Below are positions 428 through 45,831 of a stretch of DNA of 64,000 nt, one piece after another. The notes beneath the pieces were generated by a model that saw only the letters and a program-made list of their open reading frames with translations, made no database searches and was not told the origin of the DNA. This DNA is from Dictyostelium discoideum (taxonomy: Eukaryota), in NCBI GenBank assembly GCA_000004695.1, contig CM000151.3, forward strand, positions 8,096,001 to 8,160,000, read 5' to 3'. Position 1 is the stretch's first letter; the number at the start of each line of letters is the position of its first letter. Made by a program: the position numbers and the translations under genes.

Positions 428-570
428 AAAAAAAAACAATAATATTTAAGATATTTATAAAAAAAAAAAGAAAAAAAAAAACCTTCCGAATTTTATATAA
501 AGAAAAAAAAAACAATAATATTTAGATATTTATAAAAAAAAAAAAAAAAAAAACAAATAAATTAAAGAAA

Positions 571-39905: not shown

Positions 39906-40498
39906 CCAACTTTCTTTTTAATAAATTATTTAATTTATTAATTACTTAATGTTAATAAAAAAAATATTAATTAATTCTTACTTTTATGGTAATATCGAAT
40001 CTCTAAAATTAAATGGTGAGATTATTTTTTTTTTTTATTTTTATATATATTATTTTTTATTATTTTTATTTTTTTTATTTTTTTTTATTATTTTTTTATT
40101 TTTTTTATTTTTTTTGGAATGAAAAATAAAATTATTAAATTTGAAATTTATAGTTTTTTTTTAGGTTTTTTTTTTATTTATATTAAACTATATAAATTAT
40201 ATTATATTTTTAATAATTTTCTTATTTTATTTTTTAAGATCTCATTTTTTTGAAAAAAAAATACAAAACAAGATTGTGTTTGAAAAAAAAAAAAAAGGCA
40301 CATCTTCCAATTTTTATTCTTAGTAAAAAATAGGTCCAAAAAAAAAAAAAAAAAAAAAAACAAATTAAATAAAACAACACACAAATTAAAAAAAAAATTT
40401 TTATTTTATTTATTTATTTTTTAATTTGTATTTTTTTAATTCATTTTTTTTTTTAATTTATTTTTTATTTATTTAATAACATATAATTTTAAATAAAA

Positions 40499-40957
40499 AT
40501 GACAAGTAAATATTGTTGCCAACATGATGAATTTTCTTTAAGAAAGCTTAAAAAAAGTGAAGATTTCACTCTTTACCTTGATGAATTACTAGATCAAGAT
40601 GAGTTTCTAAAGATTCAGCCTGGTTACTGCACAGAGGAATGTAAACAAAAAATGAAGGAGATTTATAGAATTACATTCGAACGTTATATTGAGACTATAA
40701 ACAAATATTACAGTGACAGCAGAATTTTTGAATATAACTTGGGAAAAAATCCTCGAGGATGTGATATTTGGATGTATCGAGAATTTTTCAGTACTCCACC
40801 CCCTATCTCTCCCCAAGATGAATATGCTAGAATGGTCATAAAAGCAATGAAAGTTGGTATTAAAGATGGAAAGCCTGTTAGATTATGTGAATTGCCACCT
40901 GGTGTACAATGTGATTTTGATGCAAAAAACCTACCTGATTCTGAAGAAGATGAATAG
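40499..40957 (+). CDS. Hypothetical 152-aa protein with atypical codon usage (Cys-pair rich: CCQHDE...CTEEC...C..PPGVQC)
   Basis: Intact ATG..TAG ORF. Codons such as CAG CCT GGT TAC TGC ACA GAG and CGA GGA TGT are unusual for this genome. No family recognised by eye. Confidence 0.45.
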   Translation: MTSKYCCQHDEFSLRKLKKSEDFTLYLDELLDQDEFLKIQPGYCTEECKQKMKEIYRITFERYIETINKYYSDSRIFEYNLGKNPRGCDIWMYREFFSTPPPISPQDEYARMVIKAMKVGIKDGKPVRLCELPPGVQCDFDAKNLPDSEEDE

Positions 40958-41149
40958 AAAAATAAGTGTTAATTAAATAAAAAGAACTGTTTTAAATTTT
41001 TTTATTTTATTTTACTTTTATTTTTTTTTATAACTCTTATATAAGAGAAGTAGTTTATTTTTTTTTTAATTTTTAATATTTTTTTTTTATTTCTTTTAAT
41101 TATTTTTTTTTTTCTTTTTTTATTTCTTGCACCTCTTTTAGGTGCAAAG

Positions 41150-41365
41150 TTACCATATATATCGTTGAGCTTCTTGTGCAGTTGCAAAGGTTCTAATTAG
41201 CTCTTGTTTTTCTCTAAGTCTTTGCAATCGTCTTCTTTCACTTTCTTCTTGCATCAACCTTCTTCTTTCTTCTTGTTCAGCCAATCTTTGTTGTGTTTTT
41301 TTAATTTTTATTAATTTTACCGTTTCAGGGTCTGCTTCAATTTCTTTTTTTTGATGGGCACCCAT
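41150..41365 (-). CDS. Hypothetical 71-aa charged coiled-coil ORF (QRLAEQEERRRLMQEESERRRLQRLREKQELIR)
   Basis: GC-richer ORF within the island. No homology assignable. Confidence 0.25.
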   Translation of the reverse strand: MGAHQKKEIEADPETVKLIKIKKTQQRLAEQEERRRLMQEESERRRLQRLREKQELIRTFATAQEAQRYIW

Positions 41366-41399
41366 CGTTTTTTTTTAAAAAGTAAACCTAATGATTTAT

Positions 41400-41880
41400 A
41401 CATGTTTATATTTAATAATTGAGAATTTTTATTTTATGACATTGGTTTTGAATTATTTTTAAAAAAATCATTTTAAATTTTCTTTGATTCGTTACATTTT
41501 TGTTTCTATCTAATGATCATTTTCCAATGATTTTATATTAATGGTCATTGGAAAATCCTTTAGCTAGGAATTCTATAGAGAATCATTGAGTAAATAATGG
41601 TTTCTATAGGAAATCTTTAAACAACCATTAAAAATCGTTGATTTTTCTTTGGCTCAATTTTTAATAGTTTTCTATGTAATGGTCACATCTATACCGTTAT
41701 CAATCTAAAACCATTGGAAATAACAATATCTAATGATTTTCAATAAAGTTCAATAAAATTATAAAAAAATGAAAATAATGGATTTCATTAAAAGAATTTT
41801 TTTAAAATAAGATTAAAAATTTTATTTAAAGAATTTTTTTATTGATTTCCATAAGGAAACCATTATATGATTTTTTTTTT
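41400..41880. repeat. Array of degenerate about 20-bp repeats containing CCATTGG / AATGGTC cores
   Basis: tccaatgattttatattaatggtcattggaaaatcc; aatggtttctataggaaatc; aaccattaaaaatcgttgat; taatggtcacatctataccg; aaaccattggaaataac; ggaaaccattatatgat. Followed at 42037..42072 by (GAAATTAATAAC)3 flanked by gatttgatttct direct repeats. Confidence 0.5.
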
Positions 41881-43056
41881 TTGTTTTTTTTTTTTTTATA
41901 AAAATGAGAAAACTATTGGTACTTTATTATAATTAAAATAAAATAAATATTAATAAATGTAAAACTTTATAAAATAAATATTATTATAATAAAAGTAATA
42001 ATAAGGATAGATTGATTTGATTTCTTGAAATTAATAACGAAATTAATAACGAAATTAATAACGAAATTAATTTGATTTCTAAAAAATGTTTATTTTTTTT
42101 TCTATTTTTAGTGTAAAAAAGGGGGAAATAATTTAATTCATCAGTGAGCTGTCATTTTTAGTTTTGAACGTTTTGCATCATCAGATTCCAATGTTTGACT
42201 ATAAATATTTTCTTTACTTTTAATCTCTTGTTTAATTATTCTCTATCACGTTTTGGTTTCATTAGACCCTTGTTATATTCCAATGCCGATGATTCATTAA
42301 TACGGTCAAACTCTTTTTGAAAAGGTGTAGGTGGTACTTTCTTTAATTTTTCGGTGAACAAAACCGATGATGATTTATCACCAGTTATAGTTTTTGAAAG
42401 TTTTTTCCTATCGATTGGCATCTCCAATGTTGAACCTTTTTTTTATAATTTTCTTTTAAATCCATTCAAATTCATTTTTTTAAAAAAAATTATTCAATCA
42501 TTTTTTTAAAAAAAAAAAAATTTAAACATTAATTAAAATTATATTTTAGAAATAAAAAAGAAAAAAATGGAGCTTTTAATTCCATTAAGTTTATTGGGAT
42601 TATATTTATTTTCAGGGACAAGAGATTCAGTTCATAAGGGAGAAGTTAAAGATGACTTGAAAGAGAAACCTATAAAAGTTAATTTTAATTTAACTGACTC
42701 TACAAAAGTTGACCATAAAACTCATCTCAAACAGTACAGTTCATTAAAACCAGGTGACACATTGGAAATATTATAACAAAAACATTTAGATCACTCTACG
42801 AAAGATTTAAAACACCCAGTATCCATTATCAATGATAAGTCTGACAGTAAAATTCATCTTAAACGAACATACCGGAAAAGTTAAAGTTAAATTTATTGAT
42901 CATACAATTCGTAGTGATGTTAGACCAATCTCATTTGGAATTAATAAAAAATAATTTATTTTCTAAAAAAAAAAAAAAAATTCTCTTTATTATTTATTAT
43001 TTATTTTTAAAATTAGTTTTGTTTTTTTAAAAAAAAAAAAAAAAGAAAGAAAAAAA

Positions 43057-44300
43057 ATGGGTATCAGTGATCAAATCAATAGTAATTTATCAAGTCAATC
43101 TCCATTTACTGTAAGTACAAACCCAAGTGATTCAATGTTTCTTCCAACAAACAGAATTGCAAAAACAGCAGATTGGAAAGAGGAGAAAAAATATTACTAT
43201 CCAAAAGAATCGATTCAAAGTATTTATGAAGGTACAACAGTTCGTATCGTAATCGATAAACAAAATGGTAGACTTTATGGTTTGGAAATGGTAGTTGAAA
43301 TTGGACCATTGACTGCAAATGGTGCTACATTTACACGTCTCTGTAGGGATGTTGCTCATTCGATGGCCTATAGTGTTTCAATATGGAATGGTAATAATGA
43401 AATTCATAGACTTCATATGGATCATGAAAGAATTGAGATGGTTTTAACTAAATTAAAACATGAAAGGGACATGGAAGATAAGATGGCCGGTTACTATGAT
43501 GATGCGACACGTACTGCATTGGGTGCAACAAAACAAAAATTAATTTTTGATTTGAATTTCTTTCATACTGTCCACACTTCTGATGCACTCTATTTAAATG
43601 CCTGGCATTGAAATACACTTATCAAATTAAGATCAATCCTTTAAGAAGATGGGTAGAAACCGATGGTACTGATCCAAAAGCTAATGATTTCAAAGTTTAT
43701 CTTCGTGCTGATATTATTCATACACCACAGGATGAATATCGTATAGTTCATAATACTATCAACACTGGTACTGGTATTTTTTCACCAATTGAACATACAG
43801 AGATGAAAGAGCGTGTAGTACTCAACGTTGGTGAATCAAAACATTATGTTCAATTAACAAACATTATTGGTAATGGTCGTTCTTATTTTGTTGTTTTAAG
43901 AAGATTGGCAGACACTGAAAATCCAAAAGCACCAAGATATGATGATTTCATGCCATGGGAAAATATGCGTTTATTACATGCCGGTAATAAGGAAGTTCAT
44001 TTACCACATAATAATATGATGGATTGTTTTAAACATTTAAAGCATCGTTTTCATTTTGATGCATCCTACAATGATGATAAATCTCCAAACAGTATGAATA
44101 TTTATGGCTTCAGTTTTTCAGCTAATCCTATCGATGTCAAAAATCGAACAGGTTGTTTTTCATTCTCACAAGCAAACAATCTTCAATTGGAAGTAACAAC
44201 AAAAACTCTAACTGAACCATGGGTACTCGATTTTTATACAGCATCCACTCAAATCATTCAACAATCTGGTAACACAGCAAAAACAATTCTCCATTATTAA
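43057..44300 (+). pseudogene. NCLDV-type (double jelly-roll) major capsid protein homologue, split by a frameshift at about 43600..43611 (ORFs 43057..43611 and 43608..44300)
   Basis: ORF1 QNGRLYGLEMVVEIGPL..VSIWNGNNEIHRLHMDH..KLIFDLNFFHTVHTSDALYLNAWH* resembles PBCV-1/FV3 MCP R(N/S)GD(L/Y)I..(V/L)V..L / IGGQRIDKHYNDW / PLIFFF..GLALPLIALQYHEVK. ORF2 continues the motif (EIK)YTYQIKIN after a frame change. C-terminal IYGFSFSANPIDVKNRTGCFSFSQANNLQLEV resembles HLYAYAFSL..PSGSCNFSRIDNA.L.L of NCLDV capsids. Combined length about 414 aa. Confidence 0.7.
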
Positions 44301-44440
44301 AAAAAAAAATAAAAAAGTATAAAAATAAAATTTTTTTTTTTTTTTATTTAAAATTGATAAAGAATTTTTTTATTAAAAATTAAGTCTATCGTTTCGTCGT
44401 TATCTTCTTTATCTTCGTTATCGTTGTCGATGGCATTGGT

Positions 44441-45443
44441 CTATAGATTATCTACTGATTTTTTAAAGATTTTTTTCTTTAGTTTTTTCATTTCTTTCTT
44501 TTTAGTTTTTTCCTCCTGAATTAACCACCACCCAGGGCATACTGAATCAGTGGGTAATGAACCCCTCTTTATATCAAAACGAGGCAAATCTTTAAATTGA
44601 TGGTATAGATTCGTATACTCATAAGGAGTGTATCTAAAGATTTCAAATTCTTTAAAAGAACTACCGATAGTAGACTTGTGTTTGGATGATAAAAACAAAT
44701 TTTTAAATTCAAACCATTATCACCTGGCGATAAAACTTCATGAAGTAATAATGTTTCTTTAAATTCCCATAGAAATATGTGATGATTCCTATCATTTTCA
44801 TTACAAACTCTACAATTCATTAGCTCCCGTTTCCTTAGAAGATCGATTAAAACCTTCCAATGTTCATCAATTTTCTCAAGTTTATGATTAAGAAAAAAAG
44901 ATTCCAGAGCAATTTTTATATGATGTAGCCGATTATCAAATCTATAAAGATGTTCTCAAACTTAATACAGTAAAAATTGGAAAGGATTTGGATGGAAAAC
45001 AATGTTTTATTCATGAGTTTGGTTCTTATGGTGACCGTATGGTTGGAGCATTGGTTGGTAGTGATCTCTTGGGTGGTTATAGTACTTTCTTTGGAATAAT
45101 TGTTTCGGTTTTCATAAAGAATAAGGACATTTCATTAAAATAATTCCTTCCATTGGTTAAAATCGATAGAGATTATACTGTTCCTGAAATGTTTGTTCTT
45201 TACAAAGAACTTAGATCAACTGGTCAATTTGCAAAATCACCAAATCTTTACAAATTTTATTGTTCATTACTTTGGCTCTTGGTAAATATTCATGAACAAC
45301 TTAGTGACGATGGTAAAAATGGTTTCGAATCTCAAGCGATCAACTTACCTCTTTGCAATTATATATTGGTGAATCTAAACACAGCGATTCCTTCGAAATT
45401 CTTTATTTTTTTTTTTTTTTTAATAACATCGCTCAATTTATAA
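44441..45443. other. Decayed GC-richer ORF fragments on both strands between the MCP relic and the tRNA (44441..44820 minus, 44905..45140 plus, 45153..45443 plus)
   Basis: Overlapping frameshifted minus-strand ORFs (CRVCNENDRNHHIFLWEF... / ...YTPYEYTNLYHQFKDLPRFDIKRGSLPTDSVCPGWWLIQEE). Plus-strand fragment ...GKQCFIHEFGSYGDRMVGALVGSDLLGG, reminiscent of a minimal nucleotidyltransferase hG[GS]..G....SD motif but with the second Asp missing. Followed by KIDRDYTVPEMFVLYKELRSTGQFAKSPNLYKFYCSLLWLLVNIHEQL. Confidence 0.3.
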
Positions 45444-45486
45444 AATTCTTTATTATGTTTGGTTAAAATTGAAAAAAATTATCAAA

Positions 45487-45559
45487 GGGGATGTAGCTCA
45501 GATGGTAGAGCGCTCGCTTAGCATGCGAGAGGTAAAGGGATCGATACCCTTCTTCTCCA
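45487..45559 (+). tRNA. tRNA-Ala (anticodon AGC), 73 nt, with a non-canonical T-loop
   Basis: GGGGATG acceptor with G3:U70. A box TAGCTCAGATGG. Anticodon arm CTCGC-TTAGCAT-GCGAG. T-arm AAGGG-ATCGATA-CCCTT (A54; B box GGGATCGATACC deviates from GGTTCGANTCC). 3' acceptor CTTCTCC (T6.T67 mismatch) plus discriminator A. T6 terminator follows immediately at 45560..45565. Confidence 0.8.
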
Positions 45560-45587
45560 TTTTTTGGGCCGACGATATGAGATCGCA

Positions 45588-45598
45588 GGTTCGATTCC
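45588..45598 (+). promoter_or_regulatory. Extragenic B box (ex-B) downstream of the tRNA gene
   Basis: Perfect GGTTCGATTCC about 29 bp downstream of the tRNA 3' end. Dictyostelium tRNA genes frequently carry such an external B box, which is also used for TRE3 targeting. Confidence 0.55.
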
Positions 45599-45831
45599 TA
45601 ATTTTATTATCAACAAATTTGAAATGTTTATAAATTTAACTTTACTCGAAAAGAGTTCAATTCAAACTTTAATAATATATGATTTGTAATAATAGTATAT
45701 TTAAATTATCTACTAAAAATTTCAATTTTTATTCATTAAAGACTATTTTAGTACCAATTAATAATATTACTTTTATTAGTTCATTAGATCAAGCATTTTA
45801 TAAATTTCAAAAATAAATAAAAAATAATAAT

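Follow-up and report, generated by a model that had tools for sequence, protein, structure and literature searches.

Eukaryotic tRNA-Ala(AGC) carries a described structural signature, in which A54/A58 always occur together with R15/A48, accompanied by an extra U17 and by purines at positions 16 and 60 (PMC7566577; Westhof et al. 2020, RNA 26:1519). The combination of A54/A58 with R15/A48 in tRNA-Ala was first seen in Bombyx in the 1970s (PMC7566577). In Dictyostelium, the extended B-box consensus is GTCnnnnGTTCRAnYC (PMC3159450), and an external B box (ex-B) is known from tRNA genes: it lies ~41 bp downstream of ~66% of the D. discoideum tRNA genes (PMC3159450) or, in a review, accompanies ~80% of the tRNA genes at ~100 bp from the internal box, where it is a landmark for TRE3 (PMC5911963). 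The primary sources cited there are Hofmann et al. (1991, J Mol Biol 222:537) and Siol et al. (2006, MCB 26:8242). B boxes outside the transcribed body of a tRNA gene are also found in the ETC sites of yeast and the chromosome-organizing clamps of fission yeast, which bind TFIIIC (PMC3159450, PMC5391098). The retrotransposon TRE5-A requires a functional B box and TFIIIC for its integration (PMC5391098, PMC3159450), and D. discoideum AX4 has 15 AlaAGC genes, each of 73 bp, of which AlaAGC-2, AlaAGC-3 and AlaAGC-4 are on chromosome 2 (PMC5391098 Table S2).

We analyzed a tRNA gene of this family together with the 64-kb stretch of DNA in which it lies, referred to here as the window. Two of the window's ORFs are exact matches to the D. 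discoideum AX4 proteins DDB_G0277457 and DDB_G0277473, encoded on chromosome 2, and these flanking proteins, with a window GC content of ~22%, identify a dictyostelid host. The sole tRNA called by ARAGORN in the window was tRNA-Ala(AGC) at 45487-45559 on the plus strand, and the Rfam model RF00005 matched the same 73 nt end to end, with 58.1 bits where 29 is the gathering score. The following features were assigned.

45479-45486, plus strand: 5' flanking motif TTATCAAA, directly before +1, an instance of the recurrent (T)CATCAAA / CAACAAA motif.
45487-45559, plus strand: tRNA-Ala(AGC) gene, 73 nt, intronless, without an encoded CCA (ARAGORN and Rfam RF00005).
45494-45505, plus strand: A box TAGCTCAGATGG, tRNA positions 8-19, with G15, A16 and the extra U17 (from the sequence and the signature in PMC7566577).
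45538-45548, plus strand: internal B box GGATCGATACC, tRNA positions 52-62 (from the sequence).
45560-45565, plus strand: T6 run TTTTTT, the predicted Pol III terminator, directly 3' of A73 (from the sequence).
45580-45598, plus strand: external B box, with the core GGTTCGATTCC at 45588-45598 preceded by AGATCGCA (from the sequence, shuffles and a gene sample).

An earlier note, made from the letters alone, had described a tRNA-Ala with the G3:U70 identity pair, a good A box, an internal B box with A54 and two departures from the consensus, a T6.T67 mismatch and a perfect B box behind a T6 terminator. All of these sequence details held, with one small correction to the A box. ARAGORN, Rfam and the sequence itself agree on a cloverleaf with anticodon AGC and the alanine identity pair G3 (45489):U70 (45556), and the covariance score upholds the earlier parse; U6 (45492) stands opposite U67 (45553) in the acceptor stem, and the first base of the perfect GGTTCGATTCC is 29 nt beyond A73. 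The A box was accepted in part: TAGCTCAGATGG is present, but through A16 and the extra U17 it is one base off the stringent Dictyostelium consensus TRRYNNARYNG (PMC5391098). The reverse complement of the AlaAGC family primer (PMC5391098 Table S1) matches 45517-45540. As a chromosome 2 gene, the window copy is AlaAGC-2, AlaAGC-3 or AlaAGC-4, with AlaAGC-3 loosely favoured by the distance to the contig end in a related assembly. Since the 15 AlaAGC members are identical, tRNA-seq reads are not assignable to the window copy.

The T-loop, called aberrant in the earlier note, is the normal form for tRNA-Ala(AGC). The T-arm reads AAGGG-AUCGAUA-CCCUU, with A54-U55-C56-G57-A58-U59-A60 at 45540-45546, and the full published signature is present: G15 (45501), A16, U17, A48 (45534), A54 (45540), A58 (45544) and A60 (45546), with A16 and U17 supplied by the D-loop AGAUGGUA. 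In G3:U70, AGC, G15/A48, A54/A58, U17 and the purines at 16 and 60 the gene thus agrees with the class of Westhof et al., and it has the standard G30=C40, as does one of the Bombyx classes. The two differ in scope and in one feature: the survey covers plants, insects and vertebrates with amoebozoans unmentioned, and the U6.U67 of the window gene and its metagenomic relatives (see below) is not among the features listed there (PMC7566577). GGTAAAGGGATC is part of both the AlaAGC and the AlaUGC family primer of D. discoideum (PMC5391098), from which it follows that A54 is common to both Ala families.

These signature positions account for the imperfect internal B box. Compared with the generic consensus GGTTCGANTCC, GGATCGATACC differs at two positions, 54 (A for T) and 60 (A for Y), and a window-wide search for GGTTCGANTCC that tolerated one mismatch accordingly did not recover it. 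A48 stands for the C of the Dictyostelium GTC signature upstream of the box, which brings the departures from the extended consensus to three, at 48, 54 and 60. Because the B box spans tRNA positions 52-62 and its deviations fall on signature positions, the constraint on the RNA lowers the match to the consensus; the poor fit of the B box results from the structure of the tRNA and is not damage. Eukaryotic initiator tRNA-Met has A60 in its T-loop and is still transcribed by Pol III. It also has the A54/A58 pair (PMC7566577) and hence the same two B-box departures as the window gene, so that a B box of this kind is compatible with function. For 15 other D. discoideum tRNAs Rfam gave 55.6-68.0 bits, a range that includes the 58.1 bits of the window gene; its score is not depressed, as that of a pseudogene would be.

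We then compared the gene with its paralog and with syntenic loci, which were obtained around exact or near-exact orthologs of the neighbouring lipase gene. A tRNA-Ala(AGC) gene occupies the same syntenic position in 6/6 other Dictyostelium assemblies representing four named taxa: an AX4-like D. discoideum, a divergent D. discoideum strain with ~91% identity in the flanks, D. citrinum, D. dimigraforme and two D. cf. discoideum strains. All six syntenic copies are identical to the window gene at 73/73 nt, U67 included, while their intergenic flanks are unalignable beyond ~12 nt upstream and the T-run. The AlaAGC paralog (locus L031, adjoining a GluCUC gene; its position matches AlaAGC-14) is identical at 85/85 nt, including 6 nt on each side, and has the same Rfam score of 58.1 bits. 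The comparison with another AlaAGC copy, proposed in the earlier note as a check and made with this one paralog, therefore revealed no difference and does not bear out decay. Part of the identity among the copies could be owed to gene conversion rather than to selection on each copy.

A wider view of the U6.U67 mismatch came from a metagenome scan with the T-arm as the query. It recovered seven genes, six for tRNA-Ala(AGC) and one for tRNA-Ala(UGC), on contigs of 44-55% GC, a composition that means these genes cannot be dictyostelid; one contig has a ycf45-like gene, typical of plastid-bearing eukaryotes. Since an identical T-arm was the criterion by which these genes were picked, its invariance among them carries no weight. 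The acceptor stem is informative: position 6:67 is U.U in 4/4 distinct sequences, while 5:68 is either A:U or G:C and 7:66 either G:C or C:G. A mismatch that does not change although the pairs on both sides of it covary is being maintained, and by this sequence comparison U6.U67 is a fixed feature of this tRNA lineage rather than decay. The same T-arm scan of viral contigs gave no match. The tRNA-Ala(UGC) gene (locus L005, ~430-527, minus strand), which was missed by ARAGORN, has a 25-nt intron after position 37; its contig is 52% GC and carries the ycf45-like gene, and the tRNA has the A54 T-loop and U6.U67, as in the Dictyostelium gene.

The sequences around the gene are those of an ordinary Pol III unit. 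The (T)CATCAAA / CAACAAA motif ends exactly at -1 of many D. discoideum tRNA genes (loci L019, L020, L025, L029, L031 and L034), and a motif of the TTATCAAA type precedes the AlaAGC paralog as well as sampled Tyr, Ser-UGA, Gly-UCC and Glu genes; in the copies at the syntenic position, the one stretch of upstream sequence conserved throughout is ATCAAA or ACCAAA. The motif may have a role in Pol III initiation. It is probably the 5' 'consensus box' to which Hofmann et al. (1991) refer in their title. On the 3' side, T runs of at least 4 occur within a few bases of the other sampled Dictyostelium tRNA genes. A T run is the established terminator of Pol III, and because the T6 run directly follows the gene, the external B box lies outside the predicted primary transcript.

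Occupancy of the family by Pol III factors is implied by its use as a retrotransposon target. De novo integrations of TRE5-A(bsr) were reported at 14/15 AlaAGC genes, including all three on chromosome 2, with mapped contigs of 4/1371/103 for AlaAGC-2, 29/852/36 for AlaAGC-3 and 8/6337/406 for AlaAGC-4 (PMC5391098 Table S2); AlaAGC-14 had 2030 and 359 contigs (PMC5391098). The AlaAGC gene family is thus a live Pol III target, which indirectly supports the view that the tRNA would be expressed, modified from A34 to inosine and charged with alanine.

Taken together, the locus is very probably a standard functional Pol III unit for cytosolic D. discoideum tRNA-Ala(AGC) with a generic ex-B. In such a unit, TFIIIC would bind the A and B boxes, TFIIIB would be placed upstream over the conserved ATCAAA region, and Pol III would start a few bases upstream of +1 and stop at the T6 run. 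The ex-B is a second potential TFIIIC (tauB-type) site, of a kind found behind most tRNA genes of this organism irrespective of how good their internal B box is, and it may contribute to expression.

The ex-B itself is not a chance match. GGTTCGATTCC is the only match in the 64 kb on both strands with up to one mismatch allowed, no exact match arose in dinucleotide-preserving shuffles (0/100), and base composition predicts 0.005 exact matches per window and ~2.5e-6 for the 60 nt that follow the gene on its own strand. A relaxed B-box pattern has 7 occurrences in the window where 6.3 are expected, which is the chance level; one of them is a second permissive core, GTTCAATTC, at 45655-45663 (plus strand), 96 nt after the tRNA.

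For a sample of gene surroundings, 19 loci around identical TRE5-A ORF1 copies were used, which contained 25 distinct further tRNA genes (24 of them non-Ala). GTTCRANNC was found 29-53 nt after the gene in 14 of the 25, and two more had one-base near-misses. The offset was 29-34 nt in 13/14 cases, mostly 30-32, and that of the window gene, where the G of GTTC is at 30, is the mode of the sample; the AGATCGCA prefix is common to several of these genes and the window. All 14 genes with an ex-B have a canonical internal B box. No ex-B-like box was found behind the non-dictyostelid tRNA-Ala genes from the metagenome. Behind one sampled tRNA-Val(AAC) gene (locus L030, 7200-7390, minus strand), there are three B-box cores, at +32, +66 and +120; the second is inside AGGTCGTGGGTTCGATTCC, which copies the T-arm of this tRNA and suggests that parts of the tRNA were duplicated downstream of the gene.

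The window box therefore conforms to the published ex-B, as the earlier note had recognized: it is a GTTCRANNC core matching the B-box consensus that lies, on the strand of a D. discoideum tRNA gene, some tens of bp beyond the terminator. The published distances (~41 bp and ~100 bp) disagree with each other and with the 50 bp measured here from box to box, probably owing to different reference points. ETC sites differ from it in being isolated and lacking TFIIIB and Pol III, whereas the ex-B keeps a constant spacing from the active tRNA gene in front of it, and its TFIIIC binding is putative.

A B-box-like motif is also found at the same distance in 5/6 of the other assemblies, as GGTTCGATTCC, GGTTCGATTTCC, TGTTCGATTCC, GGTTCGAATCT and GGTTCAATTCC. 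Its retention despite the turnover of the flanks argues that the ex-B at this position is under some constraint, and the same presumably applies to ex-B elsewhere in the genome. The exception is the ortholog in the D. cf. discoideum assembly ACTFIZ, which has AGATCGCAGACTCCC in place of the ex-B and an intact tRNA.

In ACTFIZ, a TRE5-like element stands head-to-head with the orthologous tRNA-Ala gene, with the ORF1 start 108 bp upstream. This non-LTR retrotransposon (locus L014, 1-3051, minus strand) has an ORF1 of 460 aa, 68% identical to the AX4 copies, followed by a reverse-transcriptase (RVT_1) gene; in the tRNA copy beside it the ex-B is lost and the terminator is reduced to TTTATTT. Downstream of the tRNA in the window, megablast against TRE-bearing loci found no similarity to TRE3 or other retroelements. 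The space from ~100-130 bp downstream of the tRNA is taken up by a gene for an FNIP-repeat protein in D. citrinum and the two D. cf. discoideum strains (L012, 3836-5701; L014, 3423-5396; L035, 4015-5877), in the zone of reported TRE3 and Skipper-2 landing; in AX4 nothing is there.

Directly upstream of the tRNA is a block of ~5.4 kb (40116-45471) that ends ~15 bp before +1. It is present in the window and in a near-identical D. discoideum assembly, and absent from the syntenic position in the divergent D. discoideum strain, D. citrinum, D. dimigraforme and the two D. cf. discoideum strains. The block holds DDB_G0277457 (40499-40957) and DDB_G0277467. The idea of a tRNA-targeted mobile element found no support: there are no LTRs or long repeats, only low-complexity runs; it has no similarity to TRE-bearing loci, and blastn with the low-complexity filter off gave AT-rich noise only; and its one paralogous segment is not beside a tRNA. 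This segment, 40397-41917 (1.5 kb, with DDB_G0277457), has a 94% identical copy at L015 9902-11430 (DDB_G0268734), which adjoins an integrase-domain gene with no tRNA nearby.

The earlier note placed the tRNA next to a 'foreign island', a label that is not established. Two adjacent ORFs on the plus strand, 43057-43611 and 43608-44300, in different frames with a 4-nt overlap, are part of DDB_G0277467 and weakly resemble major capsid proteins of large DNA viruses (Pfam Capsid_N, E = 6e-4, below the cutoff; PDB 8h2i 'MCPv3', E = 0.021). Their homologues were found in Dictyostelium only, including one in D. dimigraforme that is 95% identical and located on a contig other than that of the tRNA-lipase locus.

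Three other readings of the locus have to be weighed. The one that survives best, although we regard it as unlikely, is specific compensation, also raised in the earlier note: the ex-B would be retained because the A54/A60 internal box binds TFIIIC poorly, and the downstream box would rescue recruitment. The departures of the internal box from both consensus sequences, the perfect 11-mer downstream, its persistence at the same distance in surroundings that are otherwise unalignable and the statement that positions 54/58 may affect transcription rates (Westhof et al., PMC7566577) are consistent with it. However, ex-B is equally common behind perfect internal boxes, in 14/24 of the sampled non-Ala genes and at the genome-wide frequencies of 66-80% given in PMC3159450 and PMC5911963. 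Moreover, the identical paralog has no B-box-like motif within 130 nt downstream, and the matching AlaAGC-14 is still a TRE5-A(bsr) target; the ACTFIZ ortholog likewise lacks the ex-B. Compensation of a weak internal box is therefore unsupported, but with three independent Ala loci compared, a quantitative dependence on the ex-B could still apply.

It is more doubtful still that the downstream GGTTCGATTCC is a T-arm relic of a second, degraded tRNA gene, or a chance occurrence, with no present role. Joined, AGATCGCA and GGTTCGATTCC give AGATCGCAGGTTCGATTCC, similar to a tRNA T-arm on its 3' side (ATC-N4-GTTCGATTC, to be compared with the internal signature GTC-N4-GTTCRANYC in PMC3159450); several ex-B copies at other genes can form T-arm-like hairpins, and we found no function for ex-B stated in the cited literature. 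Chance is excluded by the shuffles and by the expectation from base composition, and a one-off relic is unable to explain an offset of 29-34 nt in 13/14 ex-B genes of many isotypes. Furthermore, the motif persists at the locus across species with scrambled flanks, and no A box or acceptor-like sequence was found beside GGTTCGATTCC.

The reading as a decaying pseudogene beside a foreign insertion, with the A54 T-loop and U6.U67 as accumulated damage, can practically be dismissed: the two B-box departures, the unpaired acceptor position, an AX4-lineage-specific block close upstream and an MFE fold of the bare sequence that opens 6:67 and 7:66 (z = -0.87, no better than the shuffles, single-sequence MFE being uninformative for tRNAs) would fit it, but it is refuted by the identity of the gene with its paralog and the syntenic copies in six assemblies, and opposed by the occurrence of the same 'defects' in unrelated eukaryotes, where the pairs to either side of 6:67 have changed in a compensatory way, by the published A54 signature of tRNA-Ala(AGC) (PMC7566577), by an Rfam score in the middle of the range for the species and by de novo TRE5-A targeting of all three chromosome 2 AlaAGC genes (PMC5391098).

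We thus return to a standard, functional tRNA-Ala(AGC) gene with a generic ex-B. The A54 signature of tRNA-Ala and the ex-B arrangement have both been described already; a conserved U6.U67, and the persistence of this tRNA position and its ex-B across sister species, were not found in the cited literature. The position is conserved in D. discoideum, D. citrinum and D. dimigraforme, the surroundings turn over within a few hundred bases, and ex-B-like motifs persist. U6.U67, 3 bp below G3:U70, is kept from Dictyostelium to alga-like eukaryotes in a tRNA-Ala lineage that we did not find in the cited literature. These comparative points (position, persistence of the ex-B and U6.U67) leave the current understanding unchanged. 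That the AlaAGC and AlaUGC genes depend quantitatively on ex-B and that U6.U67 is a functional element of the tRNA-Ala lineage seems, for the two jointly, a slim prospect.

The locus is a calibration case: a tRNA gene can seem damaged when judged against the generic A-box, B-box and T-loop consensus and yet be canonical for its isoacceptor, and a perfect downstream B box in Dictyostelium is the rule and no special mark. If ex-B acts quantitatively, AlaAGC and AlaUGC, with their obligatory A54/A60, would depend on it more than other tRNA families, and copies with an ex-B, such as that in the window, would be highly transcribed, whereas copies without one, such as the L031 paralog, would be weak.
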